The position numbers and the translations under genes are program-made. A stretch of DNA of 37,548 nt from an uncultured Syntrophus sp. (GTDB taxonomy: Bacteria > Desulfobacterota > Syntrophia > Syntrophales > UBA5619): assembly GCA_964403345.1 (NCBI GenBank), contig CAYOGU010000001.1, positions 1 through 37,548 of the forward strand. The letters are read 5' to 3'. The notes under the pieces were generated by a model. The model worked only from the letters and a program-made list of their open reading frames with translations, had not been told where the DNA came from and did no database searches. Each line of letters opens with the position of its first letter. Positions within the stretch are counted from its first letter, which is position 1. Of the stretch, positions 13,102 through 27,027 are shown piece by piece.

Positions 13102-13896
13102 TTACTCCAGTCGCCCCTTTCGGTAGGCGACAATATAACCCAAACAGGACTCGTCCCGGCCGGTAATCAATTCCCCCGCCTTGAGTGTGGCAAAGAGCTG
13201 CCGGTCCGTCGGATCGATGATCGCCGAGTCCAGCCCCCGGTCCATGGCCGCCGCGAGGAAGGTCCGGTTGATCAGGGAACGCACAGGAAGGCCGTAGGAA
13301 ACCGTACTCAGACAACAGATCGTATGCACCCCCTTGAAGCAGCCCATGATCCGACTGATGGCCTCGAGGGTGGCCCTGGCGGACTGCTGATTGGTGGACA
13401 GGGAGTAGACCAGCGGGTCGATGTAGAGGTCCCCCGGCTGGATGCCGGCAGCGGTGATTTTTTCGATAAGCATGGTCGCAATTCCCACCTTGGCGTCTGC
13501 CGTCTCGGCGGGACTATTCTCGGCCTGACAGGAGGCGACCAGTTTCGCCCGATAATCGATCGCCAGGGAGAGAATCCCCTCCATGCGTCCCTTTTCGAGG
13601 GTCACGGCGTTAATCATCGGTCGATGCTTGACGATGGGGAGGACTTCCCTGAGCACCGCCGGATCGCGGCTGTCCAGACACAGGGGAAGATCTGTGACCT
13701 CCTGGACCGCATCGATCACCCAGCGGAGGTGCACCGCCTCGTTCCGGCCGAATATCGCCGCGTTGAGATTGAGGTAGTCGGCCCCGGAGGCCTCCTGGTC
13801 ACGCGCCTCGCCATGGATGAATTCCCGGTTACGGCTGGCGATCGCCTGGGCGATGTAGCGCCGCGTGGCGTCGATCCTGTCGGCGATGATCAGCAT
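13102..13896 (-). CDS. Second methyl-THF:corrinoid methyltransferase paralog (pterin-binding domain)
   Basis: 264 aa, collinear without gaps with the 7829-8623 product (for example 'AVQEVTDLPL', 'IDPLVY', 'LDSAIIDPTD'). It reads 'CLSTVSYGLP' where the paralog has 'GLTNVSYGLP'. Confidence 0.8.
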   Translation of the reverse strand: MLIIADRIDATRRYIAQAIASRNREFIHGEARDQEASGADYLNLNAAIFGRNEAVHLRWVIDAVQEVTDLPLCLDSRDPAVLREVLPIVKHRPMINAVTLEKGRMEGILSLAIDYRAKLVASCQAENSPAETADAKVGIATMLIEKITAAGIQPGDLYIDPLVYSLSTNQQSARATLEAISRIMGCFKGVHTICCLSTVSYGLPVRSLINRTFLAAAMDRGLDSAIIDPTDRQLFATLKAGELITGRDESCLGYIVAYRKGRLE

Positions 13897-14504: not shown

Positions 14505-14966
14505 TTATATCCGGACGGTCCTCACCTGGGGGTTGGCCTTCCCGATCCCCCGGATGATCCCGTCCAATGTTTCGTCCCTGCGGTAGCAGAACAGGTAGCC
14601 GCTCTCGCGGGACAACTTGAATTTGACAAAACCGAACCCGCCGGAAAAACGGGACCCCTCGATGGCGCGGATCTGCCCGGCCGGGACCGTCAGACGCCGC
14701 CGGAAGCTCCTGAAAACCACCTGTCCCTCGGCGTCCAGGGAAACGGCGGTGAAAAGGCCCAGGGACCAGTACCAGGTGTAGCCGTAGAAAAAGGCGACCA
14801 TCGCGGCGTACCACCAGTCCCCCCTGAGCCACCCGTCCTGGAACTTCTGGACGATCAGGGGGACGGTGCCTACGGTCCACAGGGCCATGACCCCGTAGAA
14901 GATCGCCACATAGGGCGCCGGGGCATGAAACACCTTGGTTCTGTCCTTCTCCTGCCCCGATCGCAT
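14505..14966 (-). CDS. Hypothetical membrane protein (2 TM helices plus beta-rich C-terminal domain)
   Basis: The ORF is open to 15047, but the first 27 codons read through an 18-bp perfect palindrome, so I start at the ATG at 14966 ('MRSGQEKD'). No family was recognised. The C-terminal part loosely resembles bacterial PH-like domains. Confidence 0.5.
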   Translation of the reverse strand: MRSGQEKDRTKVFHAPAPYVAIFYGVMALWTVGTVPLIVQKFQDGWLRGDWWYAAMVAFFYGYTWYWSLGLFTAVSLDAEGQVVFRSFRRRLTVPAGQIRAIEGSRFSGGFGFVKFKLSRESGYLFCYRRDETLDGIIRGIGKANPQVRTVRI

Positions 14967-14984
14967 GGCCCGCCTTTTTCCCGA

Positions 14985-15024
14985 GGCGGATTCGGCGGCG
15001 GGCCGACCCGCCGCCGAATCCGCC
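14985..15024. repeat. 18-bp perfect inverted repeat with 4-nt loop
   Basis: GGCGGATTCGGCGGCGGG-CCGA-CCCGCCGCCGAATCCGCC, lying between the dctM-like stop (15058) and the next gene start (14966). Confidence 0.9.
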
Positions 15025-15057
15025 GTTGCTTCCCGACGACCTCTCACCGGCCCCTTG

Positions 15058-16374
15058 TCAGCTCCTGAAGAGATACTTGGGCGCCAAGAGGATAATGTCC
15101 GGGATGTACATGCACATCACCAGCCCCAGGAACTGCAGCCCCAGGAACGGGAAGGCCGACTTCCAGACATCCACCGTGGAGACCTCGGGCGGAGAAACGC
15201 TCTTGAGGTAGAAGAGCGACATCCCGAAGGGCGGCGTCAGGAAGGACATCTGCAGGTTCACGGCGATCAGGACCCCGAACCAGATCGGGTCGAAGCCGAG
15301 CTGCCGGATGATGGGCCCGAAGAGGGGGATGATCAGCATGAGGATCCCGACCCAGTCCACGAAGCAGCCCAGGAAGATCACGATTCCCATCATGATCCAG
15401 ATGACGACCCACCTGTTGAGGCCCGATCCCACGAGCATGACGTTGACGAAATCCCCGCCGCCCACCATGATGTAGAGGGCGATGAAGATGTTCGCCCCGA
15501 ACATGGTCCACATGACCATCCCGGTGGCCTTGATCGTGTTGACCGCGGCCTGGACCGTGTCCTTCCAGCTCAGGCGGCGCTTGATGACCCCGATGAGCCA
15601 GGCCCCGAGGCACCCGACGCCGGCCGCCTCGGTCGGGGCTGCGACGCCGATGACGATCGTCCCCAGGACCAGGAAGATCAGCATCCCGCCCGGGATGATC
15701 GGCAGGGCGACCCGGAACAGGCCGGCCCAGTCCAGACGTTCCTCCTTCGGGACGGGCGGACCCATTTTTGGGTTGATGTAGCAACGGATCGTGATGTAGA
15801 GGATGTAGAGCGCCGAGAGCAGGAAGCCCGGCAGGAAGGCCCCGGCGTAGAGCTGGCCGATGGAGGAATTGTCCACCATCCCGTAGACGATCAGCATGAC
15901 GGACGGGGGGATCAGGATCCCCAGGGTCCCGCCGGCCAGGATGCCGCCCAAAGCCAGAAGCTTGTCGTACTTGCGGTTCAGCATCTGGGGCAGGGCGATC
16001 ATGCCCATGGTGACCTCGGTGGCCCCCACGACGCCGGCCATGGCGGCCATCATGGTGCAGGCCGCGATCGTCGCCGTGGCCACGCCGCCCTTGAGCCAGC
16101 CGAGCCAGTGGTAGACCATCATGTAGATGTCCTCGATGATCCCGCTCCGCTCGAGGAGGTTCGCCATCAGGATGAACAGCGGAATGGCGTCCAGGAGGTA
16201 GTTGGTCATGAGTCCGAAGATCCGCGTCGGAACGATGTTGACAGCCTCCGGGCCCTGGAAGAAGGCGGTGAAGACGATGCCCACGAACCCGGTGGAAAAG
16301 GCCACCGGCAGGCCCAGGAACATGACCAACACCATGCTGCCGAAGATGAGTATGGTAATCCATTCGATGCTCAT
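15058..16374 (-). CDS. TRAP transporter large permease, DctM family (second system)
   Basis: 438 aa, polytopic, clearly a paralog of the 2832-4163 product (for example 'IPLFILMANLLERSG' against 'IPLFIFMGAMLERSG'). ATGA overlap with the upstream dctQ-like gene. Confidence 0.9.
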   Translation of the reverse strand: MSIEWITILIFGSMVLVMFLGLPVAFSTGFVGIVFTAFFQGPEAVNIVPTRIFGLMTNYLLDAIPLFILMANLLERSGIIEDIYMMVYHWLGWLKGGVATATIAACTMMAAMAGVVGATEVTMGMIALPQMLNRKYDKLLALGGILAGGTLGILIPPSVMLIVYGMVDNSSIGQLYAGAFLPGFLLSALYILYITIRCYINPKMGPPVPKEERLDWAGLFRVALPIIPGGMLIFLVLGTIVIGVAAPTEAAGVGCLGAWLIGVIKRRLSWKDTVQAAVNTIKATGMVMWTMFGANIFIALYIMVGGGDFVNVMLVGSGLNRWVVIWIMMGIVIFLGCFVDWVGILMLIIPLFGPIIRQLGFDPIWFGVLIAVNLQMSFLTPPFGMSLFYLKSVSPPEVSTVDVWKSAFPFLGLQFLGLVMCMYIPDIILLAPKYLFRS

Positions 16375-16916
16375 TTAAATTCCCTCCCTGTAAAGGCCAT
16401 GTGGGCGTCCCGGATGGTCCAGACGATGCCCTGCAGGAGGAGCAGCACCCCGCCGACGGGCATCAGGATCTTGACGGGATAGAGGGGAGGGGCCCAGTCC
16501 GTGAAGGAGGCCTCGCCGGGGATCTCGATCCCCAAAAAGGTGTTCCCCGCGGTCATCCACTGGGAGCTCCAGTAGAACTGCCAGGAGGTCCAGATGTAGA
16601 CCAGAACGAAGATATAGAAGAATACGGCGGTGACCAGGTCCATGACCGCCTTGGTCCGGGGGCTGCGCGTCGCGTAGATCACGTCGACCCGCACATGGGC
16701 CCGCCAGTAGTGGGCCACGCCCACGACCATGACGTAGTACATGGCGAACAGGGAGTACATCAGCTCATGGCCCCAGTTCGTCGGCATGCCGAAGACGTAG
16801 CGCATGATCACCTCGAAGGAGATCACGACCACGCAGACCAGCGAAATATAAGCCATCATCTTGCCAACGAAGAGGTTGGTCTTTTCGACGGCCATCATAA
16901 AGGTTCTCAAGTCCAT
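16371..16916 (-). CDS. TRAP transporter small permease, DctQ family (second system)
   Basis: 181 aa with 4 TM helices. Shares 'PPLYPVKI' with the first DctQ-like protein. Its position between the dctP-like and dctM-like genes fits. Confidence 0.85.
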   Translation of the reverse strand: MDLRTFMMAVEKTNLFVGKMMAYISLVCVVVISFEVIMRYVFGMPTNWGHELMYSLFAMYYVMVVGVAHYWRAHVRVDVIYATRSPRTKAVMDLVTAVFFYIFVLVYIWTSWQFYWSSQWMTAGNTFLGIEIPGEASFTDWAPPLYPVKILMPVGGVLLLLQGIVWTIRDAHMAFTGREFK

Positions 16917-17100
16917 GGTTCAGCCTTTCCAAGCGAATTCTTCGACGGCCCCTCTGCCTCGGGCCGTCCGACGGTCTCTCACGCTCTCCCTGCGTCCCCA
17001 GGGGATTGCGGCGATGCAGCGTGATCCCAAAATCCCAGAGTGATGGGTAAAAGGGACTCCTCGAAGGGCGAGGCCGGCCCTTCCCCTGAAGGCCGCGTTT

Positions 17101-17131
17101 AAAAAAGGCGGGGGGAGGGACTCCCCCCGCC
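17101..17131 (-). terminator. Rho-independent terminator/attenuator after the Tat-type dctP-like gene
   Basis: The minus strand reads GGCGGGGGGAG-TCC-CTCCCCCCGCC followed by TTTTTTAAA. The stem is an 11-bp perfect GC-rich pairing that begins 10 nt after the TAG stop at 17142-17144. Confidence 0.75.
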
Positions 17132-17141
17132 CGGAACGGAT

Positions 17142-18293
17142 CTAGAAGGTGATCTTCTTGCCGTTGCGGTCCACCATGTCCTTGTCGGAGTAGTAGCCGA
17201 CCTTGATGGACTTCATGAACTCCCACTGGGACTTGAAGGCCTTCATCGCCAGCGGGTCCTTCTTGGCCCAGGTCACCCAGAGCTCGGGGGCGAACTTCTG
17301 GAACTTCTCGATGTCCGACTCCTTCAGGCGGATGATCTCGCAACCCTTGGCCAGGTACTTGGGAATCGCCTCGAGGTCGGCCTTCTGGTTCCCGGTGTAG
17401 TGGTCAACGGAGTGCCAGGCCACGGCCGCTTCGACCAGATCCTGGAGGTGCTTGGGAAGGGCCTTCCACTTGTTCATGTTGACCTCGATGCTCATCAAGT
17501 CGACGGGCTGGTGGAGGCACGGGGTGGAGGGGGGGCCGATGATGATGTACTTGGCGATCTCGGCGAACCCCAGGTTGTAGTTGACGGCCCAGCCCACGAA
17601 GTCGGCGGCGTCGATGACCCCCTTCTCCAGGGCCGGATAGACCTCCCCGCCCGGCAGGAGGACCGTGGAGACGCCGGCGGCGCGGTAGATGTCCGCGATG
17701 ATCCCGCCCGGGTAGCGGATCTTCTTGCCTTTGAAGTCCTCGAAGGAGCGGATGGGCTTCTTGGAGTGGATCAGGTTGTCGTCATGCTGGATCGGCCCCA
17801 GGTACATCAGGTTGTGCTTGCCGTAGGCCTCGCGGGCGATTTCCCGGCCGCCCAAGACATAGTACCAGGTGTCCCACTGGTCGGGGCGGTCCAGGGCGAA
17901 GGGGTAGGAGGACAGGAAGGTGCAGGCAGGGACCTTCCCGGGCCAGTAAACGTCGAAGCTGTGGTAGGCGTCGAAAACGCCCGCCTTGACGGCGTCGAAC
18001 ATCTCGAAGGTCCCGACGATCGCGCCCGCGGGCAGGCCTTCGATCGTCAGCTTGCCCTCGGTCATCTCGCCGACCTTGGCGCAGAACTTCTTGAACAGGT
18101 CGAACCCGACCGTCCCGGCGTCCCAGCAGGTCTGCATCTTCCATTTGATCGGAGCCGCTGCGGAAAGGCGCATCACACCGGGAAATCCCATGACCCCCGC
18201 CGCGGTTCCTGCCGCGACCGCGGCGGTCTTTAAAAAGGTACGTCTTGACTTGGTCTCCTTAGGTGATTTGACCTTCTTCGCTTCCTTACTCAT
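17142..18293 (-). CDS. TRAP transporter substrate-binding protein, DctP family, with twin-arginine (Tat) signal
   Basis: 'SRRTFLKTAAVAAGTAAG' is a consensus S-R-R-x-F-L-K Tat motif. 'KGKKIRYPGG' carries the DctP-family carboxylate-binding Arg. The track starts at a TTG at 18299, whereas the ATG at 18293 sits 7 nt after AAGGAGG. Confidence 0.85.
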   Translation of the reverse strand: MSKEAKKVKSPKETKSRRTFLKTAAVAAGTAAGVMGFPGVMRLSAAAPIKWKMQTCWDAGTVGFDLFKKFCAKVGEMTEGKLTIEGLPAGAIVGTFEMFDAVKAGVFDAYHSFDVYWPGKVPACTFLSSYPFALDRPDQWDTWYYVLGGREIAREAYGKHNLMYLGPIQHDDNLIHSKKPIRSFEDFKGKKIRYPGGIIADIYRAAGVSTVLLPGGEVYPALEKGVIDAADFVGWAVNYNLGFAEIAKYIIIGPPSTPCLHQPVDLMSIEVNMNKWKALPKHLQDLVEAAVAWHSVDHYTGNQKADLEAIPKYLAKGCEIIRLKESDIEKFQKFAPELWVTWAKKDPLAMKAFKSQWEFMKSIKVGYYSDKDMVDRNGKKITF

Positions 18294-18541
18294 TAGCAAT
18301 CCTCCTTGTTAAATGGGTTTAAAAGGACCCGACCGCCCACCTGATGATGCCCGGTCAGGACAGACATAAACTCACTCCATGGAAAGTACTGCTTTTAGAG
18401 ATAAAACGCCTTGTTCGGTCACCTCGCCTTGATCAGCCGTTTTACAGGATGGAACCCCTTGGTCCCTTAGCATCCCGGTCCGAGGCTGTCAATAAGAAAA
18501 AAACCCTCCTTTCATTCTTGCCTTTCTTCTGGTCCGTGCCC

Positions 18542-18586
18542 CCTTCCCCGGCCCTTGCGCCGTGCAGGCGCGGGAGCCGGGGAAGG
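18542..18586 (-). other. Stable GC hairpin immediately after the glcF-like stop codon
   Basis: CCTTCCCCGGC...GCCGGGGAAGG (11-bp perfect stem) with an inner GCGCC/GGCGC stem. There is no adjacent U-tract, so it is not a canonical intrinsic terminator. Confidence 0.4.
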
Positions 18587-18592
18587 CAACGG

Positions 18593-19891
18593 TCATTTGC
18601 TGTTCGCCAGGGCCGCCTGGAGGAGCTCCACCGGATGCATGGTCCTCATCCCCCGGGCCGGATCCAGGTGGTTGGAAATGGTCACGTTGCACCCCGGGCA
18701 GCAGGTGGCCACCACCTGGGCCTTGGTGCTGTTGATGTTGTCGATCTTGCGCTTGGTGATCTTGGCCGAGATCTCGCCGTGCTCCACCTGGAAGGAGCCG
18801 CCGCCGCCGCAGCAGTCGTTGGCCCCGGGCATCTCGACGTACTCGACGCCGGGGATCGACTTGAGGATATTCCTCGGCTGGGCGCTGATCTTCTGCCCCT
18901 TCACCAGGTGGCAGGGGTCGTGATAGGTCACGCGGAGCTTCTGCCCGTTCTCGCCGAGCTTGGGCAGCCAGTCCTTGTGCGCGTCGATGAAGACGGTCAC
19001 GTCCTGGGTCTTGGAAGCCAGGAGCTCCGCCTTCTTGATCTCCTCGTCCGTCACCTTCTCCCCAAGTTCCCGGAGGTCCTTGAGCAGGTTGGTGTACTCG
19101 TTCTTCAGGGCCGCACCGCAGGTCCCGCAGTCGACCAGGACCGCGTCCACGTCCCCCCGGGCGAAGAGTTTCAAGGTCTCACGGATGATCTCGACCGAGG
19201 TTTCCCGGTCGCCGGAGAGGAAGATCGGCAGGCCGCAGCAGCCCTGGTCCTTGGGGATGATCACCTCGACCCCCATCCGGGACAGGACGTCGACCACGGC
19301 GTTGCCGATGCTGCCGAAGACGAAGTTCGTCGCGCAGCCGTGGAAGTAGAGAACCTTTGCCTTGGCCTTGCCGCTCTTCGGGGCGACCACCTCCGGAACC
19401 GTGTCGGAGAAGGCCTTCTTGTTGAAGGGCGGGATGCGGTCGACCGAAAGGGCTCCGGCCTTGAGCTTTCTCTCGATCCAGGGGCCGCTGAAGTTCCGGC
19501 GCGCCCACCCGCCCAAAGCAGCGGACTTGGACATGAGCCAGCGGTTCGCCAGGACCCGGAACATCAGGCTCTTCCTCCAGTCGATCCCGTATTTCTGCTT
19601 CGCCCGCCAGCGGATGCCGGAGAAGAGATGGTCCCCGTGCACGCCGCTCGGACAGTTGGCGACGCAGGAGCCGCAGAGCAGACAGGTCGAGAAGAAGGCC
19701 TCCTTGACCTGTTCGCTCAGATCGAGCTTTCCCTCCGCCAGCGACCGGGAGAGCTGGACCTTGCCGCGGGGGCTGGCCACCTCCAGGAGCTCCTCCTTGT
19801 AAACCGGGCAGTGGGCCAGGCACAAACCGCATTTGACGCAATGATAGATATTTTCACCTGTCTGGTTGCTGAGCAATTTTTTGTCTTCCAT
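18593..19891 (-). CDS. Fe-S subunit, GlcF-like (two 4Fe-4S ferredoxin motifs plus two CCG domains)
   Basis: 432 aa. Contains 'CVKCGLCLAHCP', 'CLLCGSCVANCP', 'CCGLP' and 'CCGGGG', which is the GlcF/HdrD-like architecture. Confidence 0.8.
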   Translation of the reverse strand: MEDKKLLSNQTGENIYHCVKCGLCLAHCPVYKEELLEVASPRGKVQLSRSLAEGKLDLSEQVKEAFFSTCLLCGSCVANCPSGVHGDHLFSGIRWRAKQKYGIDWRKSLMFRVLANRWLMSKSAALGGWARRNFSGPWIERKLKAGALSVDRIPPFNKKAFSDTVPEVVAPKSGKAKAKVLYFHGCATNFVFGSIGNAVVDVLSRMGVEVIIPKDQGCCGLPIFLSGDRETSVEIIRETLKLFARGDVDAVLVDCGTCGAALKNEYTNLLKDLRELGEKVTDEEIKKAELLASKTQDVTVFIDAHKDWLPKLGENGQKLRVTYHDPCHLVKGQKISAQPRNILKSIPGVEYVEMPGANDCCGGGGSFQVEHGEISAKITKRKIDNINSTKAQVVATCCPGCNVTISNHLDPARGMRTMHPVELLQAALANSK

Positions 19892-19918
19892 AGATTGCCT
19901 CTACCTCTCTTTCCTAAG

Positions 19919-20042
19919 CAGGCTGTTGAAAACCGCCTATCTGCGGCGTTTCCCTCATCCTTCGCCGTTCAACGTACCGGATCGTACGCCTCACGGCCCA
20001 GGATTTCGGGGGCCTTGCATCCGGGCCTTTTTGAACAGCCTG
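19919..20042. repeat. About 124-bp extragenic element bounded by terminal inverted repeats
   Basis: CAGGCTGTTGAAAA (19919-19932) pairs with TTTTGAACAGCCTG (20029-20042), 13 of 14 complementary. There is an internal CGTAC-CGGATC-GTACG hairpin. It sits in the 183-bp gap between the glcE-like and glcF-like genes. Confidence 0.6.
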
Positions 20043-20074
20043 TAACGGAGCCCTATTCCATAGGCTCTAGCGCC

Positions 20075-21442
20075 TCAGACGCCGGCCACAAACCGGCCGG
20101 GATTCAGGATTCCCGATGGATCCAGCTTCTCCTTCAGGCGGCGGACCAGAACCGCATCGCTGCGGGTCTTTCCCCATACGCTGAGTTTCTCCTTGATCGC
20201 CCGCGGGGCCTTCTGGACGACGAGGTTGCCGCCCTGTTTCACCGATTCCGCAGTGAGACGCTCCACCAGCGATGCGACCGATGCCGCCTTGGCCGCCGTG
20301 TCCGCACCCAGGGGAAGCGCTGCATACAGCAGGCCGTTGCCGGCCCGGCAGGTCAAGGCGCCTTCCAGAGAGGCCTCCTTGAGGGCCGCCTCGAAGGCCG
20401 TCACCATCTCAGGCACCTTGGACAGAACGAAATTGGATTTGAGGACCACCAGGTTGGGTGAGGCTTTGGCCAGGGTCCCGGCCAGATCCCCGTAGGCCGT
20501 CCAGAAATCGCGGTGCGCCTGGTCCTTGAGCGTGACCACGTCCAGCGCCCCGCCTTTGCGGCCCAGGTCGCCAAGTTCCGTGACCTGGCGCGCCACCGCC
20601 TCCTCGATCCCTTCCAGGCCGATCGCCGCCACGTAGGACCCCTTCAAGCCGGCGGAAGCCTTGAAGGCGGAGGCCGTCTTGGCGTTCATCAGTTCCATCG
20701 AGGCGGGGAAGAACTTGGAGTGGAGGAGCATCTTGAGATAGGCAGCGGCTTCGTTCAGGGTGCCGAAGGGGATCAGGAGCGTCGCCTCGGCGTCCGGCTT
20801 GGGATAGATCCGGAAGACGACCTCGCAGAGGATCCCCAGGGCGCCCATGGAGCCGATCATCATCTTGGTCATGTCGTAGCCGGCCACGTTCTTCACGGCC
20901 TTGCCGCCCGAAACGACGATATCCCCGTTGGGCATGACGGTCTTGACCCCGAGGATGACATCCCGCGCGGCCCCGTAGATGAAACGTTTCGGGCCGCTGT
21001 CGTTGGTCGCCACGATTCCGCCGATGGTCGCCTCCTGGGAGTAGGGAGGATCCAGGGGGATAAAATACCCCCTCCCCTCTCCCGCCAGCTTCTGCTGAAC
21101 CTCTGCCAGCGTCAGGCCGCACTCCACACCCACGGTCAGGTTGGCGATGTCGTAGTCGGCATAGCGCTTCAGCCTCCGGGTCGAAAGGAGGATATCCGCC
21201 TTCTTCTTGGGAATGCCGCCCAGGCCCATCTTGGTCCCGCTCCCCATCGGAACGACGGACAGCTTTTCGGCGTTGGCGCAGGCGAGGACTTTCGATACCT
21301 CTTCGATCGTCCCGGGAGCGACGAACAGGCCGGGAGCATCCCCATCCACCGCGTAGGCCTTGAGCTTTTCCGGATCTTCGATCACATTGGCCTCGCCGAC
21401 AATGGCCTTCATTTTCGAAGCCAATTTATCATAGTTGGACAT
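20075..21442 (-). CDS. FAD-binding oxidase subunit, GlcE-like
   Basis: 455 aa. PCMH-type FAD-binding domain ('VVPMGSGTKMGLGG'). Located between the GlcD-like and GlcF-like genes. Confidence 0.75.
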   Translation of the reverse strand: MSNYDKLASKMKAIVGEANVIEDPEKLKAYAVDGDAPGLFVAPGTIEEVSKVLACANAEKLSVVPMGSGTKMGLGGIPKKKADILLSTRRLKRYADYDIANLTVGVECGLTLAEVQQKLAGEGRGYFIPLDPPYSQEATIGGIVATNDSGPKRFIYGAARDVILGVKTVMPNGDIVVSGGKAVKNVAGYDMTKMMIGSMGALGILCEVVFRIYPKPDAEATLLIPFGTLNEAAAYLKMLLHSKFFPASMELMNAKTASAFKASAGLKGSYVAAIGLEGIEEAVARQVTELGDLGRKGGALDVVTLKDQAHRDFWTAYGDLAGTLAKASPNLVVLKSNFVLSKVPEMVTAFEAALKEASLEGALTCRAGNGLLYAALPLGADTAAKAASVASLVERLTAESVKQGGNLVVQKAPRAIKEKLSVWGKTRSDAVLVRRLKEKLDPSGILNPGRFVAGV

Positions 21443-21463
21443 ACCGTTATCTCCTTTCCTCGA

Positions 21464-22852
21464 TCAGGCCGCCTTTTCCGCCGGGAGCAGTTTTCCGGGG
21501 TTGTAGACTCCATCCGGGTCAAAGGCCAGTTTCACATTCCGCATCGCGGCAAGGTCCTGCGGGCTGAAAATAAAGGGCATCCCCTTGAGCTTCTCGACGC
21601 CGATGCCGTGCTCGCCGCTGATCGTCCCGCCCATCTTGGCGCAGATCTCCATGATCTCGAAGGCCGCCTTGTGCACCCGTTCCAGTTCGTCGGCGTCCCT
21701 CTGGTCGAAGAGGATGAGCGGATGGAGGTTTCCGTCCCCCGCATGGAAGACGTTGGCGATGGGGAGGTTGTACTTCTTGCCGATCTCGACCACCTTGGCC
21801 AGGGCCTCGGGAAGCCGGGTCCTGGGCACGGTCGGGTCGTTGACCAGATAGTTGGGACGGAGCCGTCCGACGGCCCCGAAGGCCCCCTTGCGGCCCGCCC
21901 AGATCTTGTCCCGCTCGGCGTCGGTCTTCGCCACGCGAACCTCGCGGACTTTGTTCTGTTTGCAGATGGCGACCACCTGATCGATCAGCCGGTCCATGCC
22001 GTCCTTGAGGCCGTCCAGCTCGATCAGGAGGATCGACGCGGCGTCCTCGGGAAGCCCCACGTGGTAGGCCGCCTCGACCGCTTTGATCGTCAGGTTGTCC
22101 ATCATCTCCAGCGTCGTGGGGATCATCCCGGCCTTGACGATGTCCGAGACGGTGTTGGCGCCATCGGCGATCGTGTCATAGATGGCCAGCATCGTCTTGA
22201 CCGCCTCGGTCTTCGGCATCATCCGGAGGACGAGCTTCGTCACCATCCCGAGCGTTCCCTCCGAACCGACCAGCAGGCCCGGAAAATCGAACCCCGGGTT
22301 GTCGAGAGACTTGCCGCCGATCTCGACCACCTGCCCGTCATAGAGGACCAACTCGGCGCCGAGGATGTGGTTGCTCGTCACGCCGTATTTGAAGCAGTGG
22401 GCGCCGCCGGCGTTCTCCCCAACGTTTCCGGCGATGGTCGTCGCTTTCTCGCTGGAGGGGTCCGGGTGGTAGAGGAAGCCGTACTTGCCAATCTCGCCCT
22501 TGATGTCCAGGGTGATGGCCCCCGGCTCCACGACGACCCGCTGGTTGTCCACATCGATTTCCAGGATCCGGTTCATCCGGGTGAAAAGCAGGGCAATCCC
22601 GCCTTCGGTGGGAGAACTGCCGCCGCTGAGGTTCGTCCCGGCGCCCCTGGCGACCACGGGGATCCCGTTGTCGTGGGCGAATTTGACGACCTTGGAGACC
22701 TCTTCCGTCGAGCTGGGCATGACGATGCACAGCGGCCTTCCGGGGTTGAGGGAGGCGTCGTAGCCGTAGAGCTGAAGCTCCATCTCCGAGGCCATGACAT
22801 CCTCTTTCCCGACGATCTTCGCCAGCTCCTGGATGACTTGATTGCGTTCCAT
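21464..22852 (-). CDS. FAD-linked oxidase, GlcD-like (glycolate / D-2-hydroxyacid dehydrogenase catalytic subunit)
   Basis: 'VVARGAGTNLSGGSSP' and C-terminal 'GTISGEHGIGVEK'. The ORF is open to 22921, but the ATG at 22852 follows GAAAGGAG. Confidence 0.8.
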   Translation of the reverse strand: MERNQVIQELAKIVGKEDVMASEMELQLYGYDASLNPGRPLCIVMPSSTEEVSKVVKFAHDNGIPVVARGAGTNLSGGSSPTEGGIALLFTRMNRILEIDVDNQRVVVEPGAITLDIKGEIGKYGFLYHPDPSSEKATTIAGNVGENAGGAHCFKYGVTSNHILGAELVLYDGQVVEIGGKSLDNPGFDFPGLLVGSEGTLGMVTKLVLRMMPKTEAVKTMLAIYDTIADGANTVSDIVKAGMIPTTLEMMDNLTIKAVEAAYHVGLPEDAASILLIELDGLKDGMDRLIDQVVAICKQNKVREVRVAKTDAERDKIWAGRKGAFGAVGRLRPNYLVNDPTVPRTRLPEALAKVVEIGKKYNLPIANVFHAGDGNLHPLILFDQRDADELERVHKAAFEIMEICAKMGGTISGEHGIGVEKLKGMPFIFSPQDLAAMRNVKLAFDPDGVYNPGKLLPAEKAA

Positions 22853-22920
22853 AACTTGACTCCTTTCAACGACCCGGACCGCATCTTCCCTTGGAAGCGG
22901 TTGAGGCGTCGCTTGAAACA

Positions 22921-22957
22921 AAGCGAAGCAATCCCGAAAAAGGCGATTGCTTCGCTT
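22921..22957 (-). terminator. Hairpin (13-bp perfect stem) between the citE-like and glcD-like genes; candidate terminator or processing site
   Basis: AAGCGAAGCAATC-(11 nt)-GATTGCTTCGCTT. On the minus strand it is followed by TGTTTCAAG, a short and imperfect U-tract. Confidence 0.4.
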
Positions 22958-23095
22958 ATGGTTCCGTCAGTGTTTGATCAGCTTGATCAGCATAAATCTG
23001 TTTTGGTTGCGTTGAAAGTTTACTTCATGAATTCCTGTTCGCTTTCCATATGTTCCACAGTCTTATGCCGACTGTTCCCTTCCCGCAGTTCCCTC

Positions 23096-23989
23096 TTACT
23101 TCTTCCGGAGGGCCTCCATGTCCTTGATCTCCTTTTCCTGGGACAGGATCGTCCGGGCGTTGTCGTAGACCGGCGTGTCGACCATCTTGCCCTTGTAGGA
23201 AACGGCGGCTTTGCCCATCGCAAGCCCTTCTTTCTCGAAGACGTCCACAACGCCGGCGGCCCATTCGACCTGCGCCGGGGTCGGCCGGTAGAGACGGTTG
23301 GAGGGTTCGACCTGGGTGGGATGGATCAGCATCCTGCCCTCGTAACCCATCTGGCGGCCTTCCATGACGCTCTTCTCGAAGGCCGGGATGTTCGCGAAAT
23401 CGACGAAGGGGCAGTCGATGGCGATGCAGCCGGCGGCGCGGGCGGCCACGGCGGTGTAGTACCGGCCGTAGAGCTGCTCGGTGGCCTCGGTCGTCAGGTC
23501 CACGCGCATATCCTTGCAGTAGTCGACGGCGCCAAAGATCAGCGAGCAGACGCGTTTGCTGGCCGTGGCGGATGCATAGGCGTTGATCATGCCCTTGGCC
23601 GTCTCGATCAGGAGCTGGATCGCGATGCTGCCCACCTGCAGGCCGCGCCGTCTCTCGAGTTCTTCGAGCTTCCAGTCGAGCCTCTTGACGTCGTCGGGAT
23701 GGCCGGTCTTGGCCAGGCACACGCCGTGGAGCCCCTCATGGACGATCGCCTCGAGGTCGTCGTTGGTCAGCAGGGTTTCCCAGTTGTTGATGCGGGAGAA
23801 GACCTTTGCGCCGCCCTTGCCGGCATGCTTCAGGTTCGCGGCGATGATCTCGCGAGCCTTTGCTTTCTCGGAGGGGGGAACGGAATCCTCCAGATCCAGG
23901 GTAATGATGTCGGCCGGGACTTCCGGGGCCTTGCCGACGAATTTCTCGTTGTTGCCGGGAACATAGAAAACGGACCTCATGACTGCCAT
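23096..23989 (-). CDS. HpcH/HpaI-CitE family CoA-ester lyase (malyl-/citramalyl-/citryl-CoA lyase-like)
   Basis: 297 aa. Contains 'VFYVPGNNEKF' and 'ITLDLEDSVPP', which are CitE-family N-terminal motifs. RBS AAAGGAG. Confidence 0.8.
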   Translation of the reverse strand: MAVMRSVFYVPGNNEKFVGKAPEVPADIITLDLEDSVPPSEKAKAREIIAANLKHAGKGGAKVFSRINNWETLLTNDDLEAIVHEGLHGVCLAKTGHPDDVKRLDWKLEELERRRGLQVGSIAIQLLIETAKGMINAYASATASKRVCSLIFGAVDYCKDMRVDLTTEATEQLYGRYYTAVAARAAGCIAIDCPFVDFANIPAFEKSVMEGRQMGYEGRMLIHPTQVEPSNRLYRPTPAQVEWAAGVVDVFEKEGLAMGKAAVSYKGKMVDTPVYDNARTILSQEKEIKDMEALRKK

Positions 23990-24017
23990 AATCGTATCTC
24001 CTTTCTCGCTTGGGGGG

Positions 24018-24932
24018 TTATTTGACCCTGAGTTTGCCCTGCTGTTTGAACTCCCTGAGTTTCCCCGGGATCTCGTTGGGATTGTCCACCACGATGATTC
24101 CCGCTTCCCTGAGCCGCGTGATCTTGTCTTGAGTCGAACCGCTGCCTCGCTCCACGATGGCGCTGGCGTGGGAGAACTTCATCCCGGCTGGCGCCCAGGC
24201 ACCGGACACGTAGATGATGATCGGCTTGGTGAACTTGCCGGACTTCACCAACTGGGCCGCCTCCTCTTCGTGGGAGCCGCCCATCTCGCCGAAGATGGCC
24301 ATGACATCCGTATCAGGGTCTTCCTGGTACAGGGGCAGAACGTCGGCAAAGGACATGCCCGTCACCGGCTCGGTCCCCACATGGAGGACCGTGCTGACGC
24401 CGAAACCCGCCTGGGCGATGACGTAGGGAAGGGTTCCCGACTGACCGCCGCTGCGGGAGATGACCCCCACATGGCCCGGCACGAAGTGCCGGTTGGCAAA
24501 CTCGACCGAACCGCCCAGCCATCCCAATACGCCCACACCCGGGGCGTTGACCCCGATGGAGCCCGGTCCCAGGAGCTTGGCCCCCTTCTGTTTCGCGTAG
24601 GCGACCATCTCCAGGATGTCGAAGAGGGGAACGCGCTCGACGGGCATGACAAGCCACTTGACGTCCGAATCCAAGGCCTCGAGGACGGCGTCCTTCAGAC
24701 CGGTCCCAGGGATGAAGGTCACGGAGACATCGAACAGACCGTGGTTCTTTACCGCGTCCCTGACTGTATTGTACACGGGGATCCCGTCCACTTCCTCGCC
24801 GCCGCGGCCAGGCGTAACGCCGGCGACGACGTTCGTCCCCATGCGCCGCATGAACTTGGCGCGCATGGAACCTTCCCGGCCCGTAATCCCCTGAATCACC
24901 ACTTTCGTTGACTTTGTCAGCAAGATAGCCAT
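24018..24932 (-). CDS. NDP-forming acyl-CoA synthetase alpha subunit, SucD-like
   Basis: Aligns by eye along its length with E. coli SucD ('TKVVIQGITGREG', 'GVTPGRGG', 'GVISRSG', 'KFSHASAIV' with the phospho-His). ATG at 24932 follows AAGGTGG. The upstream extension to 25043 overlaps the neighbouring gene. Confidence 0.85.
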   Translation of the reverse strand: MAILLTKSTKVVIQGITGREGSMRAKFMRRMGTNVVAGVTPGRGGEEVDGIPVYNTVRDAVKNHGLFDVSVTFIPGTGLKDAVLEALDSDVKWLVMPVERVPLFDILEMVAYAKQKGAKLLGPGSIGVNAPGVGVLGWLGGSVEFANRHFVPGHVGVISRSGGQSGTLPYVIAQAGFGVSTVLHVGTEPVTGMSFADVLPLYQEDPDTDVMAIFGEMGGSHEEEAAQLVKSGKFTKPIIIYVSGAWAPAGMKFSHASAIVERGSGSTQDKITRLREAGIIVVDNPNEIPGKLREFKQQGKLRVK

Positions 24933-24951
24933 ATTTTCACCACCTTCTTGG

Positions 24952-25227
24952 TTAGGATATTCCGTGCTTCTTACGGTACTCGTCCAGCCCCGGGATCGGC
25001 GCCTCGATCTTGATGGCCCCTTTTCCCCTGAACCCGCACTCATATTCGCATGCCAGGCACTCCGTCCCGAGCCGCTTGGCGTCCCCTTCCACGACGGGTT
25101 TGCCGTCTTTCAGGACCAATATCCCCCGAGCGTAGGTCTTGCAGGCCGCGATGCAGGCCTTGGACTCACATGCTGCGCATTTGCTGTCATCGATGATGAC
25201 CTTGATCGTCTGTTCCTGAAACTCCAT
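24952..25227 (-). CDS. Small Cys-rich ferredoxin-like protein inserted between the synthetase subunits
   Basis: 91 aa. Strong RBS AAAGGAGG. Seven Cys arranged as C-x2-C-x4-C-x3-C ... C-x2-C-x3-C, which is not the canonical C-x2-C-x2-C-x3-CP pattern. Confidence 0.6.
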   Translation of the reverse strand: MEFQEQTIKVIIDDSKCAACESKACIAACKTYARGILVLKDGKPVVEGDAKRLGTECLACEYECGFRGKGAIKIEAPIPGLDEYRKKHGIS

Positions 25228-25239
25228 GGGTGGCCTCCT

Positions 25240-26499
25240 TTACCCTTTCTTCTGCTGTTCTTTCTTGTATTCGAGAACCATCTCCTTCATCTCCGCGGCG
25301 AGCCCGACCGTGTCATAGACACGTTCGCCGCCGTAGATCCGGATCCGGGCGTTGAGATCCTTCGTCCCTTCCCTCAGGATTTCCAAGGACTCCTTCTCCT
25401 TGTTGCCCGCCAGGAGCAGCATGACCGGGAAGCCGGGATATTTGGGCAGTTCCTCCCTCAGGGCCTTGACGACGCCGTGGGCATGGTGCCACTGTTCCTG
25501 ATTGGCGGCCATGAATCCGCCCAGCATGTAGCCATCAATGCCAGGCTGGGAGAAGACGAGCTTGGCCGCGCGGTAGACCTTGGAGGCAGGGGGGTTGCCG
25601 CTCGTATCGGCGAAGTCGGGGACCCGGAGGCCCTGCTTGTTGAGGCCGTCGACGCCGAGCATGGCGCCACCGCCGCCCATGCCGTGATAACCGATCGTCC
25701 CGAAGCACTCCCCCTTGATCTGGTTGTTCATCTCGGCGAAGTAGCAGGTCCCACGGAGATCCTTCTCCTCCACCCACCAGGCGATCTTGTCCAGCTCCGT
25801 GGGGGGCGTTCCCGACTCGCGGGCCACCTCGATCCCCAGTTCGGGATGGCGGATGGCGGAGGAGTCGTCGATGGAAAGCCGGCAGTCGCTGGCCAGGACC
25901 TTGCCGTCCTTGGTGACGACCATGGGGTTGATCTCGATGAGGCGGCAACCGAAATTCTTGAAGGTTTCGTACAGTCCGACCAGGAGGCGGGCGACCTGGG
26001 TGATGTGTGCGCTGGGAACCCTGACCTTGTTGGCGAGGTTGAGGGCGTCGTAGATCTTGAAGCCGCGGATGACATCGATGTTCATCATGGCGATCTTGTC
26101 GCCGGGGACCGATTCGATGTCCATGCCGCCCTCGGTGGAGAACATGAAGACGGGGCAGCGGGCGTCGGCCTGGGCGTTCACAACGATACCCGCATAGTAT
26201 TCCCGGTCGATGGCCAGCTTCTCCTCGACCAGGACCTTCTCCACCAGGTAACCCTTGATCGTGGCCCCCAGGAGGGCGGCCGCCTGTTTCTCAGCCTCGG
26301 CAGGGGTATCGGCAAACTTTACGCCGCCCGCCTTCCCGCGGCCGCCGGTCCAGATCTGGACCTTGATGACAACGGGTTTTCCCAGTTTTTCTGCAATCTT
26401 TCTGGCTTCTTCCGGGGTCTTGGCGACAGCCCCTTCGGGGATCGGCATCTTGGCAATCTTGAACAACGCTTTACCCTCATGCTCATTTAAACGAGCCAT
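25240..26499 (-). CDS. NDP-forming acyl-CoA synthetase beta subunit (ATP-grasp), SucC-like
   Basis: 419 aa. 'LNEHEGKALF', 'VVIKVQIWTGGRGKAGGVKF' and 'YAGIV' resemble the SucC N-terminal ATP-grasp. The C-terminal ligase-CoA region is divergent ('DFADTSGNPP' where SucC has 'NFLDVGGGA'). RBS TAGGAGG. Confidence 0.8.
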   Translation of the reverse strand: MARLNEHEGKALFKIAKMPIPEGAVAKTPEEARKIAEKLGKPVVIKVQIWTGGRGKAGGVKFADTPAEAEKQAAALLGATIKGYLVEKVLVEEKLAIDREYYAGIVVNAQADARCPVFMFSTEGGMDIESVPGDKIAMMNIDVIRGFKIYDALNLANKVRVPSAHITQVARLLVGLYETFKNFGCRLIEINPMVVTKDGKVLASDCRLSIDDSSAIRHPELGIEVARESGTPPTELDKIAWWVEEKDLRGTCYFAEMNNQIKGECFGTIGYHGMGGGGAMLGVDGLNKQGLRVPDFADTSGNPPASKVYRAAKLVFSQPGIDGYMLGGFMAANQEQWHHAHGVVKALREELPKYPGFPVMLLLAGNKEKESLEILREGTKDLNARIRIYGGERVYDTVGLAAEMKEMVLEYKKEQQKKG

Positions 26500-26745
26500 A
26501 CCTACCTCCTAAGACGTTCGATTGTTTCAATTTTCCATCCGATTGCTCGGATTGCTTCCGCGCAGACTTTTCGACCTCCCCTGCCCCGGGCCGTTCACCC
26601 CTGGGACCGTTCCGGTGCAACAAAAGGTGTAATAAAAAATGAAGGGAAGGCTAAATTTTTAACAGACGGGTTTTGAGATGTCAATACGAAACCCCTTTCT
26701 CCGATTTCATCGGGCTGGGACCTGGTCGGCCTTTGGGTGGAGCGT

Positions 26746-26760
26746 ATCTGGTTACCAGAT
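26746..26760. promoter_or_regulatory. Palindrome ATCTGGT-T-ACCAGAT abutting the -12 element (candidate operator at the predicted transcription start)
   Basis: 7-bp perfect arms with a 1-nt spacer, lying within 2 nt downstream (in the minus sense) of the TTGC -12 box. Confidence 0.35.
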
Positions 26761-26761
26761 A

Positions 26762-26776
26762 GCAATATGGGTGCCA
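26762..26776 (-). promoter_or_regulatory. Sigma-54 (-24/-12) promoter
   Basis: The minus strand reads TTGGCACCCATATTGCT, that is TGGCAC-N5-TTGC with exact GG/GC spacing. It sits about 260 nt upstream of the sucC-like ATG at 26499, in an AT-rich gap. Confidence 0.75.
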
Positions 26777-26939: not shown

Positions 26940-26992
26940 TGGATGCCTCATCGGTCCGAGGGATCAAGGCCACTGCTCGTAGAAAGGCGGAT

Positions 26993-27007
26993 GTGCGTAT
27001 CAAGCAC
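26993..27007. promoter_or_regulatory. Candidate enhancer-binding-protein site 2 (GTGC-N7-GCAC)
   Basis: atGTGCGTATCAAGCACat, with complementary arms ATGTGC and GCACAT. Confidence 0.5.
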
Positions 27008-27012
27008 ATATT

Positions 27013-27027
27013 GTGCTTTTGCGGCAC
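27013..27027. promoter_or_regulatory. Candidate enhancer-binding-protein site 3 (GTGC-N7-GCAC)
   Basis: tGTGCTTTTGCGGCACa, with complementary arms TGTGC and GCACA. Its start is 20 bp (two helical turns) from the start of site 2. Confidence 0.5.

Follow-up and report, generated by a model that had tools for sequence, protein, structure and literature searches.

The window analysed here is a 37,548-nucleotide stretch of contig CAYOGU010000001.1 (GenBank assembly GCA_964403345.1, positions 1 to 37,548 of the forward strand) from an uncultured Syntrophus sp. It carries on its minus strand a run of genes (14505-26776) coding for a SucC-like protein, a 7-Cys ferredoxin-like protein, a SucD-like protein, a CitE/HpcH-type lyase, GlcD-, GlcE- and GlcF-like oxidase subunits and a DctPQM importer of the tripartite ATP-independent periplasmic (TRAP) type, exported by the twin-arginine translocation (Tat) pathway. 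The cluster reads as a catabolic operon for a small 2-hydroxy-monocarboxylate, most likely glycolate and perhaps lactate too. The route favoured here, with moderate confidence, would lead from glycolate to glyoxylate, on to malyl-CoA and finally to malate plus ATP. It is favoured because the linkage between the ligase-lyase core and GlcDEF-like genes is tight and widespread, with malate-recycling and glyoxylate-specific enzymes among the neighbours; because 86 related loci contain no citrate-synthase-like lyase or isocitrate dehydrogenase (IDH), unlike those of the sister ligase clade; because the lyase keeps seven residues of malyl-CoA lyase (MCL), the ligase alpha subunit keeps its phospho-histidine and the genes are packed behind one sigma-54 motif; and because the same chemistry was reported for Syntrophobotulus glycolicus and Moorella sp. 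HUC22-1. The cluster is a coherent, widely conserved and experimentally tractable candidate, for which the evidence is all in silico. Its genes are the following.

25240-26499, minus strand: LigB, ligase beta subunit, 419 aa, with an ATP-grasp N-terminal domain and a citryl-CoA-synthetase-like C-terminal domain (motif DTSGNPPASKVYRA)
24952-25227, minus strand: Fd, 7-Cys ferredoxin-like protein, 91 aa, CxxCx4Cx3C ... CxxCx3C, no Pfam or NCBIfam match
24018-24932, minus strand: LigA, ligase alpha subunit, 304 aa, Pfam CoA_binding, Ligase_CoA and Succ_CoA_lig, phospho-histidine loop SHASAIV
23096-23989, minus strand: CitE/HpcH-type beta-hydroxyacyl-CoA lyase, 297 aa, Pfam HpcH_HpaI (E 2e-37)
21464-22921, minus strand: GlcD-like FAD-dependent D-2-hydroxyacid dehydrogenase subunit, Pfam FAD_binding_4 and FAD-oxidase_C, probable start 22852
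20075-21442, minus strand: GlcE-like second FAD-binding (PCMH-type) subunit, 455 aa, Pfam FAD_binding_4 and FAD-oxidase_C
18593-19891, minus strand: GlcF-like Fe-S subunit with a 2x[4Fe-4S] motif region and two CCG domains, Pfam CCG (twice) and Fer4_8
17142-18299, minus strand: DctP, TRAP solute-binding protein with Tat signal SRRTFLK, Pfam DctP (E 8e-40), probable ATG 18293
16371-16916, minus strand: DctQ, TRAP small membrane subunit, Pfam DctQ (E 4e-17)
15058-16374, minus strand: DctM, TRAP large membrane subunit, Pfam DctM (E 2e-82), start overlapping the dctQ stop by 4 nt
14505-15047, minus strand: small membrane protein, no Pfam or NCBIfam match, start codon uncertain (Met codon at 14966)

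The ten genes named in the original prediction, a reading of the letters made without database searches, are all present on the minus strand, closely spaced from 26499 down to 15058, with intergenic gaps of 12, 19 and 28 nt inside the ligase-lyase block. Their given names agree with Pfam architectures in nine of ten cases, the 91-aa Cys-rich open reading frame (ORF) being the one without a match. No cluster protein reaches an NCBIfam equivalog cut-off except as a generic TRAP component (DctM has 318 bits against TIGR00786, cut-off 268), so the gene names used here denote architecture and not orthology. Start codons were revised where necessary. The SucD-like gene most likely begins at 24932 (MAILLTK), its 341-aa ORF overlapping the Fd gene with the part further upstream, and GlcD probably starts with the ATG at 22852. 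The DctM frame is 15058-16374; the ORF 15044-16363 is in the wrong frame. The eleventh ORF (14505-15047) extends the cluster beyond the limits first assigned to it: homologues with 32-55% identity adjoin TRAP or GntR genes of the same cluster in eight loci (L002, L009, L053, L069, L073, L075, L080 and L082), accompanying the TRAP genes in relatives.

Ligase, ferredoxin-like protein and lyase

The ligase keeps the SucCD features of an ATP-grasp beta subunit and a CoA-binding alpha subunit with a phospho-histidine loop, and stays below the equivalog cut-offs. LigB (Pfam ATP-grasp_2, E 6e-52, with a weak Citrate_bind match and no Ligase_CoA match in its C-terminal domain) scores 233.3 bits with the SucC model (cut-off 370) and LigA 265.4 bits with the SucD model (cut-off 336). 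The best PDB match of LigA is the alpha subunit of A. pernix succinyl-CoA synthetase (265 bits), where 'RMGHAGAII' aligns with 'KFSHASAIV', histidine on histidine, in agreement with the phospho-His context first proposed for this segment. LigB matches T. aquaticus SucC (213 bits) and H. thermophilus CcsA (147 bits) in the PDB. Its N-terminal half resembles Thermus SucC, and its C-terminal half has in common with Hydrogenobacter CcsA (6HXQ_B) a GNPPAxKxY segment and a PPTE...D.RG insertion that are absent from SucC. An exact-sequence look-up of LigB matched no record; some of its homologues carry the NCBI label 'acetate--CoA ligase family protein'.

The comparison with SucCD called for by the original prediction was run as model scores and a rough neighbour-joining tree. 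The tree places LigB outside the SucC group, on one of the two branches of a 'DTSGNPPA' clade, together with its HpcH-associated relatives, which include a 50%-identical protein from Bathyarchaeia. The other branch (P0249, P0250) is a sister of ATP-citrate lyase (ACL)-like type. The genes of P0250 and of P0405, a close relative of P0249, adjoin a Citrate_synt-type lyase, an aconitase and an isocitrate/isopropylmalate-type dehydrogenase (loci L087 and L090), which is the context of ACL or of the citryl-CoA synthetase/citryl-CoA lyase (CCS-CCL) pair. The two branches also differ in a motif, L[IL]AGNKE in HpcH-type ligases versus RLGGN in ACL-type ones. A likeness to malate thiokinase (Mtk), as first supposed, did not hold up in view of the CcsA-type C-terminal motifs, the ACL-like sister clade and a score of 160.6 bits with the MtkA model (NF010647, cut-off 604). 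A true succinyl-CoA synthetase was ruled out by scores, tree position and the constant lyase partner. By these measures the ligase is neither an Mtk nor a SucCD orthologue and belongs to the 'DTSGNPPA' clade.

In L087 (8001-11324) and L090 (8001-11269), a LigB with a Cys-degenerate ferredoxin-like C-terminal extension adjoins LigA and a citrate-synthase-type lyase, the latter fused to LigA in L090; an HD protein, an aconitase and Iso_dh then follow. These are ACL/CCS-CCL-like systems with a relic of the ferredoxin domain. A Planctomycetota origin holds for the P0249 cluster (L090).

Gaps of 12 nt to the LigB stop and of 19 nt to the LigA start flank the Fd gene, which is found between the beta and alpha genes in 83 of the 86 related loci. 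All seven Cys are invariant in 21 homologues, as is G54, which takes the place of an eighth Cys, the first one of the canonical second motif. Compared with the two CxxCxxCxxxC-type motifs of bacterial 2x[4Fe-4S] ferredoxins, the protein has seven Cys instead of eight, in atypical spacing. Its AlphaFold2 model is of moderate quality (pLDDT 71) and the best fold matches, which are weak, are small [3Fe-4S]/[4Fe-4S] ferredoxins (1siz, probability 0.99, E 0.03, TM-score 0.48-0.61). In relatives with 38-51% identity, identified by an exhaustive search of representatives, LigB carries this domain as a C-terminal fusion: P0241, P0243, P0245 and P0255 have eight Cys in it, and P0249 and P0250 carry Cys-degenerate versions. 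Because of these fusions and of the gene position between those of beta and alpha, Fd is assigned to the ligase rather than to the oxidase, as its probable third subunit with putative Fe-S clusters, a component that the two-subunit SucCD does not have. The protein taken for an extra Fe-S subunit in the original prediction, with its seven invariant Cys, would thus be part of the ligase.

We found no description in the searchable literature, including that on the Olavius symbiont, of this cluster, of a ferredoxin-like subunit or domain in a SucCD/ACL-superfamily ligase, or of a CCS-type ligase paired with a CitE-type lyase. To our knowledge, neither an Fe-S subunit built into such a ligase nor the swap between a CitE-fold and a citrate-synthase-fold lyase partner in sister clades has been described. 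Both features bear on the evolution of ATP-citrate lyase, whatever the substrate. A more far-reaching combination of ideas, which we consider quite unlikely, is that Fd is a true Fe-S subunit making substrate-level phosphorylation redox-sensitive, that the HpcH-type core is an unrecognised third form of ACL/CCS-CCL extending from Thermodesulfobacteriota to Bathyarchaeia, and that Cys-degenerate relics of it persist in Planctomycetota ACL-type enzymes. In such a role Fd could, for example, let the ferredoxin/hydrogen poise of a syntroph control the turnover of malyl-CoA or citryl-CoA.

The lyase scores below cut-off with every NCBIfam model of its family: 186 bits with citE (cut-off 443), 129 with RipC and 82.5 with haloarchaeal Mcl (cut-off 500). 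The proposed family check by hidden Markov models thus gave CitE as the best match, at a sub-threshold score. In the PDB the closest proteins are Mcl 5ugr (126 bits), CLYBL (120 bits) and D. radiodurans CitE (113 bits), and the alignment is end-to-end with the last two. The catalytic Arg/Asp and Mg2+-binding Glu/Asp of R. sphaeroides MCL are D42, E44, D45, R76, E141, D168 and D299 (PMC3832036). All seven are kept, aligning with D32, E34, D35, R66, E129, D156 and D272 of the lyase. The MCL-specific insertion of about 30-40 residues after beta-strand 6 is absent, the alignments with 4L9Y and 5UGR being gapped or split at that place. The lyase would catalyse the reaction glyoxylate + acetyl-CoA <-> malyl-CoA; its sequence alone cannot discriminate between glyoxylate, pyruvate and oxaloacetate as the oxoacid.

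Oxidase, importer and gene neighbourhoods

The three consecutive oxidase genes have the GlcDEF architecture of two PCMH-type FAD subunits and one subunit with 2x[4Fe-4S] and two CCG domains. GlcD obtains 500 bits with TIGR00387 (glcD, cut-off 568) and GlcE 159 bits with its model (cut-off 284). The GlcF-like subunit is below cut-off with all NCBIfam models, namely the LdhH C-terminal part (286 bits), GlpC (186 bits) and GlcF (167 bits, cut-off 333). The best PDB match of GlcD is 9QGZ (320 bits), deposited as 'glycolate oxidase', followed by LctD (271 bits). A full-text search for the code 9QGZ led to one microbiology paper, on an FAD-dependent D-lactate dehydrogenase of an isopod gut microbiome (PMC12724367).

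DctP is most similar to Thermus thermophilus TTHA0766 (2ZZV, Ca2+/L-lactate-binding; 471 bits, E 3e-140); the two proteins are 58% identical as a whole and 60% identical in the mature part. The Arg in its 'KGKKIRYPGG' segment, singled out at first as carboxylate-clamping, is conserved and aligns with 'KGVKLRVPGG' of TTHA0766; the Tat signal SRRTFLK is directly visible in the sequence, as had been noted. The eLACCO1 biosensor built on TTHA0766 has a Kd of 4.1 uM for L-lactate and of 120 uM for D-lactate, and its affinity for lactate is lowered by the mutation Tyr80Phe; the corresponding Tyr appears to be kept in DctP. Glycolate is not mentioned in the two TTHA0766 biosensor papers searched. Because of the likeness to TTHA0766, the DctP ligand is predicted to be a lactate-like 2-hydroxy-monocarboxylate. 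The predicted import of a 2-hydroxyacid is consistent with this, glycolate as the ligand being suggested by the gene context. The same holds for a comparison with the TTHA0766/TakP group as a whole, known for cation-mediated binding of lactate and 2-oxo-monocarboxylates: identity, Tat signal, Arg and apparently Tyr are shared, whereas the context of the window protein suggests glycolate. Transporters and oxidases that take both lactate and glycolate are common in E. coli. A second DctP type, only 28-49% identical, serves the same cluster in other lineages.

LigB homologues number in the thousands in metagenomes, the closest named ones being from Syntrophobacterales, Syntrophales and 'Syntrophaceae PtaU1.Bin231' metagenome-assembled genomes (MAGs). 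At least 591 stretches matching the core (LigB, Fd, LigA and lyase) turned up when one genome per GTDB species was scanned. The best 80 of these were kept; they have 56-98% identity and are all from MAGs, none from an isolate. Thermodesulfobacteriota (Syntrophales, Syntrophobacterales, Syntrophorhabdales, Desulfatiglandales, Desulfarculaceae, Desulfobacterales) make up most of the carriers among these 80, next to a few Nitrospirota and Chloroflexi. Locus L007, from 'Deltaproteobacteria bacterium bin.454', shares 98% identity with the window.

Neighbours were counted in 86 fetched loci, where genes are absent mostly because of contig ends. The core is the most constant part, with LigB in 86 loci, Fd in 83, LigA in 80 and the lyase, whose gene adjoins the ligase, in 77. 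GlcD/E-like genes are found in 59 loci, GlcF-like in 43 and DctP in 27. Linkage was examined in the 38 non-redundant loci that extend for 5 kb or more to either side of the core: a GlcD-like gene lies within 5 kb of it in 30 and within 1.5 kb in 26. A pyruvate:ferredoxin oxidoreductase (PFOR) is encoded in 9-10 of the 86 loci, oxaloacetate decarboxylase (OAD) alpha/beta in 6-7, malate dehydrogenase (MDH), with scores above the NCBIfam cut-off, in 5 and malic enzyme in 2. A glyoxylate-reductase-like 2-hydroxyacid dehydrogenase and a class-V aminotransferase (BhcA-like) are each present in 8 loci and a LarA-like racemase in 7. A formyltransferase-like (Fmt-like) gene directly follows the lyase gene in 37 loci, and a GntR/FCD regulator is encoded in 35. 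Individual loci illustrate these combinations. L004 contains a divergent TRAP system, the core, fused GlcDE, GlcF and PFOR. L005 (Desulfatiglandaceae) combines OAD alpha/beta, MDH and GntR with the core and GlcDEF. L006 has a glycerate-kinase-type MOFRL protein, a GlxR-like protein, a hydroxypyruvate isomerase (above cut-off), a malic enzyme, the core and a glyoxylate carboligase (759 bits, best model by far). No citrate-synthase-like lyase (CCL) or IDH was found in the 86 loci, and the aconitase family gave a single match of 24-29% identity.

Several accessory genes recur around the core. The Fmt-like paralogue (Formyl_trans_N and Formyl_trans_C, about 303 aa; examples are L035:7633-8544, L016:13459-14397 and L057:13459-14382) scores 182 bits with the fmt model (cut-off 201.5). 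LarA-type Ni-pincer 2-hydroxyacid racemases (L028, L031, L032, L063, L064, L075, L077) are often next to a branched-chain-type ABC transporter adjoining the core; they score 347 bits with the lactate racemase and 294 bits with the malate racemase model, both below cut-off. Upstream of GntR in L049-L051, L055 and L067 there is a second, divergent module composed of GlcD-like, GlcF-like, GcvH, GlcF-like, a membrane protein with a faint QmoC match and an LplA-type lipoate-protein ligase. Its GcvH is above the NCBIfam cut-off and the module may be a lipoyl-carrier-linked oxidoreductase system. Desulfobacterales-type clusters (L004, L069, L072, L078, L080, L081, L083, L085, L086) encode an MTH1187-family thiamine-binding-like protein (95 aa) and an S-adenosylmethionine (SAM)-dependent methyltransferase between the lyase/Fmt-like genes and a fused GlcD-GlcE. 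The core is also found without GlcDEF. In the Bathyarchaeia locus L088 (7694-11361, GCA_038852285.1), LigB, a 92-aa Fd, LigA and the HpcH lyase come after a ThiS-like gene, and in L091 (1974-6684) the core is followed by a PrpD/MmgE-family protein, a cupin, a DUF1847 protein and an FrdA-like flavoprotein. These two contexts indicate that the core may serve other hydroxy-di- or tricarboxylates in other lineages.

Candidate pathway and its alternatives

In the pathway favoured here the TRAP system would import the 2-hydroxyacid, and the GlcDEF-like flavo-iron-sulfur dehydrogenase would oxidise it to glyoxylate, with a presumed electron acceptor at the GlcF-like subunit. The short CitE-like lyase would condense glyoxylate with acetyl-CoA to (S)-malyl-CoA, which the three-part ligase (beta, ferredoxin-like, alpha) would convert with ADP and Pi to malate, ATP and CoA via its phospho-histidine. 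Acetyl-CoA would be regenerated by malic enzyme, or by MDH and oxaloacetate decarboxylase, together with PFOR, all encoded elsewhere; with malate recycled in this way, glyoxylate would therefore be oxidised to two CO2. The direction is deduced from the importer. TRAP systems are importers, and since the one present here would bring in the oxidase substrate, the 2-oxoacid is expected to be made inside the cell and consumed by the lyase. Carriers of the syntroph or sulfate-reducer type fit a substrate whose oxidation needs hydrogen removal or sulfate.

The closest functional precedent is the pathway of S. glycolicus and Moorella, defined biochemically, in which glycolate is converted via glyoxylate and malyl-CoA to malate plus ATP, and then to pyruvate and acetyl-CoA (PMC8092247, PMC6313629). 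It comprises glycolate dehydrogenase, malyl-CoA lyase, an ATP-forming malyl-CoA synthetase, malic enzyme and PFOR in Syntrophobotulus glycolicus and Moorella sp. HUC22-1. The predicted reactions follow one another in the same order, the thioester would likewise be cleaved with a gain of ATP, genes for the required enzymes lie within or next to the cluster in various lineages, and the hosts, too, are strict anaerobes, of the syntrophic or sulfate-reducer type. The known pathway differs in consisting of enzyme activities and in occurring in Firmicutes, whereas the carriers here are uncultured Thermodesulfobacteriota. No gene assignments for the anaerobic malyl-CoA pathway were found in the searchable literature.

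The E. coli glcDEFGBA operon with its GntR/FCD activator GlcC similarly unites in one unit a GlcDEF-type oxidase, the condensation of glyoxylate with acetyl-CoA and an uptake system, and a GntR/FCD regulator accompanies most relatives of the cluster. Here, however, a CoA-ester lyase and an ADP-forming ligase stand in place of malate synthase G, so that the thioester energy would be kept as ATP; a TRAP system is found instead of the GlcA permease, a sigma-54 promoter replaces GlcC in this clade, and the subunits are below equivalog cut-offs. MtkAB and Mcl of the methylotroph serine cycle also combine a SucCD-superfamily ligase with an adjacent CitE-superfamily lyase, with malate/malyl-CoA as the substrates proposed here as well. 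The present ligase nevertheless scores far from MtkA, is from another clade and has a probable ferredoxin-like third subunit, the lyase has no MCL insertion, and the proposed direction is the reverse. Hydrogenobacter CcsAB with Ccl, and AclAB, share the two-step ligase and lyase organisation and are closest to the C-terminal domain of LigB (GNPPA, PPTE). They differ in that the lyase here has the CitE/HpcH TIM-barrel fold and not the citrate-synthase fold, no TCA-cycle genes adjoin, Fd is Cys-complete and the subfamily motif is another one. By these tests the cluster falls outside the Mtk, SucCD and MCL equivalog families, stays below the equivalog scores of E. coli GlcDEF and would work like the malyl-CoA pathway and the glc operon.

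Several observations weigh against the malyl-CoA route. The ligase is remote from MtkA and akin to citryl-CoA synthetase segments and an ACL-like sister clade, the best model for the lyase is citE, and the insertion typical of MCL is missing. DctP resembles a lactate binder, and GlcD has its nearest solved relatives in a D-lactate-type enzyme and LctD, which also appear to point to lactate, as do the LarA racemases, which hint that chiral 2-hydroxyacids feed the oxidase too. The window encodes no malic enzyme, MDH, OAD or PFOR. The Fmt-like gene has no place in the malyl-CoA scheme, nor a role in any other scheme proposed here. The HpcH-type core has other contexts as well: L091 has PrpD and an FrdA-like protein, L042 a MaoC hydratase and Bathyarchaeia none of these neighbours. 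All the relatives kept from the genome scan are, finally, MAGs. The glycolate/malyl-CoA logic of the original prediction therefore finds backing in the GlcDEF-core unit (30 of the 38 loci) and in the glyoxylate, malate and pyruvate enzymes of the neighbourhood, while ligase and lyase similarities point elsewhere.

Citryl-CoA and lactate alternatives are retained because of the ACL-like kinship of the ligase, its probable Fd subunit and the TTHA0766-like binding protein. The core could be a two-enzyme ATP-citrate lyase of new make-up, with ligase and Fd as citryl-CoA synthetase and the CitE-like protein as the citryl-CoA lyase, in the position of the citrate-synthase-fold CCL. The core would split citrate into acetyl-CoA and oxaloacetate, or run in reverse as an ATP-yielding citrate synthase, and GlcDEF and TRAP would be merely a neighbouring 2-hydroxyacid module. 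The CcsA-like segments of LigB and its weak Citrate_bind match speak for this possibility, as do the Citrate_synt-type lyase, aconitase and Iso_dh adjoining the fused-LigB sister clade (L087, L090), the MDH and oxaloacetate decarboxylase flanking the core in several loci, and the occurrence of the core alone in Bathyarchaeia and its presence in Nitrospirota MAGs. The best lyase model, citE, describes a citryl-thioester lyase subunit, but its score is far below the cut-off (186 versus 443). The 86 loci moreover lack a citrate-synthase-like lyase and IDH and show that single distant aconitase-family match, the subfamily motif (L[IL]AGNKE) is not the ACL-type RLGGN, the binding protein is of a monocarboxylate (lactate/pyruvate) and not a tricarboxylate type, and the GlcDEF-like partners and glyoxylate-specific enzymes are left unexplained. 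We consider this reading unlikely, and the least improbable of the alternatives to the malyl-CoA route. A lactate-utilisation operon is distinctly unlikely in our estimate. TRAP would import L-lactate, LarA would racemise it where present and the GlcDEF-like enzyme would be a D-lactate dehydrogenase forming pyruvate, the ligase gaining energy from acetyl-CoA (as an ADP-forming acetate-CoA ligase) or from citramalyl-CoA made by the lyase from pyruvate and acetyl-CoA. The 58-60% identity of DctP to the L-lactate/Ca2+ binder, the GlcD relatives 9QGZ and LctD, the LarA-like racemases (7 loci) and PFOR (9-10 loci), GntR regulators of relatives that score slightly higher with LldR and PdhR than with GlcC models, and the acetate--CoA ligase name of some homologues are all in its favour. 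Yet lactate utilisation needs no C-C lyase, and the lyase is the most constant partner of the ligase (77/86); citramalate is a metabolic dead end, and genes for its processing do not recur. Also left without explanation would be MDH, OAD and malic enzyme, as well as glyoxylate carboligase, the glyoxylate-reductase-like protein and the aminotransferase. Glycolate was never tried on TTHA0766 in the biosensor papers, and dual acceptors are common in E. coli. With dual substrates, the lactate reading may be partly true beside the malyl-CoA one.

A reverse, ATP-consuming operation of the core resembling the serine cycle is very improbable. Malate would be activated to malyl-CoA and split into acetyl-CoA and glyoxylate, the latter being turned into glycine by the aminotransferase or into glycolate by the GlcDEF-like enzyme or a glyoxylate reductase, in the service of C1/C2 assimilation or as an electron sink. 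Several relatives do join a class-V aminotransferase, a hydroxypyruvate/glyoxylate-reductase-like dehydrogenase, MDH and the Fmt-like folate enzyme to the ligase and lyase, a gene set that recalls the methylotroph serine-cycle cluster sga-hpr-mtk-mcl, and a methyltransferase/tetrahydrofolate (THF) C1 block lies directly downstream in the window. However, an importer for a monocarboxylic 2-hydroxyacid in the operon makes the oxidase a supplier of glyoxylate and not a consumer, relatives show no synteny between the THF block and the cluster, and a search of the window for the Fmt-like, LarA-like and class-V aminotransferase genes known from relatives found none. Of the other substrates that the original prediction had flagged, appropriately in our judgement, itaconate/citramalate was set aside, the hydratase that itaconate would need being absent here and a MaoC-type gene being present only in L042, and D-malate gains no support from a binding protein of the monocarboxylate type.

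What becomes of glycolate without oxygen is known from only a few isolates, and of the malyl-CoA route only the enzyme activities are known (PMC6313629). The cluster, if the malyl-CoA reading is correct, would supply candidate genes for this route and a natural 'ATP-conserving malate synthase' module for pathway engineering. In that case hundreds of uncultured species of Syntrophales, Syntrophobacterales, Syntrophorhabdales and Desulfatiglandales, which come from digesters, aquifers and sediments, would also count as predicted anaerobic oxidisers of glycolate, a compound that algae and other autotrophs release as a major exudate.

Regulatory elements and surroundings of the cluster

Sequence elements with a possible regulatory role were found upstream of LigB and between dctP and dctQ.

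26761-26776, minus strand: sigma-54 type -24/-12 element, TGGCAC-N5-TTGCT (TGGCACCCATATTGCT), 262 nt upstream of the LigB start codon
26991-27017, no strand assigned: overlapping inverted repeats with GCACA / TGTGC half-sites, about 230 nt upstream of the -24 element (direct reading and scan)
17106-17132, minus strand: hairpin of 12 pairs (10 G-C) followed by a T-run, directly after the dctP stop and before dctQ (terminator-like scan)

The element TGGCACCCATATTGCT is the sole exact match to the sigma-54 motif in the window, with about 0.05 expected by chance (shuffles). Its -24 GG and -12 GC are correctly spaced and conserved in relatives: in 14 related loci, which all belong to the clade of at least 86% LigB identity, the motif stands upstream of the ligase gene at a distance of 125-306 nt. 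On the motif alone, the cluster is probably under sigma-54 control, as was first proposed. No AAA+ sigma-54 enhancer-binding activator was identified among the scanned window ORFs; it is possibly encoded elsewhere in the genome. Both the TRAP linkage and the sigma-54 motif are clade-specific, most relatives having a GntR/FCD regulator instead. The scores of these regulators are close together and all below cut-off (LldR 157, PdhR 145 and GlcC 114 bits). The inverted repeats at 26991-27017 are tentatively considered a candidate activator binding site; a TGTGC-N7-GCACA sequence is found at a similar distance in 2 of 17 close loci (L007 and L020), a weak conservation. The hairpin at 17106-17132 probably acts as an intra-operon attenuator or stabiliser and may keep the mRNA of the binding protein in excess over that of the membrane subunits. 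At gathering thresholds no Rfam family was found anywhere in the window; the region upstream of the cluster and the 1.1-kb gap that follows dctM accordingly contain no riboswitch.

The window has a G+C content of about 60-69% and nearly all its genes are on the minus strand. Upstream of the cluster the surroundings are of housekeeping type (hexapeptide-repeat protein, CoaE, CoaX, BirA, NadC, ValRS, MiaA and MutL). Downstream, positions 175-13896 (minus strand) contain the corrinoid-dependent methyltransferase/tetrahydrofolate C1 block, which has a second DctPQM TRAP system of its own. It encodes a URO-D-type methyltransferase, a B12-binding corrinoid protein, a DUF1638 protein, a URO-D and B12-binding fusion, two pterin-binding methyltransferases, a methylenetetrahydrofolate reductase with DUF5981, FolD and formate-THF ligase. 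The block looks like an O-/N-demethylase-type system delivering methyl groups to the methyl branch.

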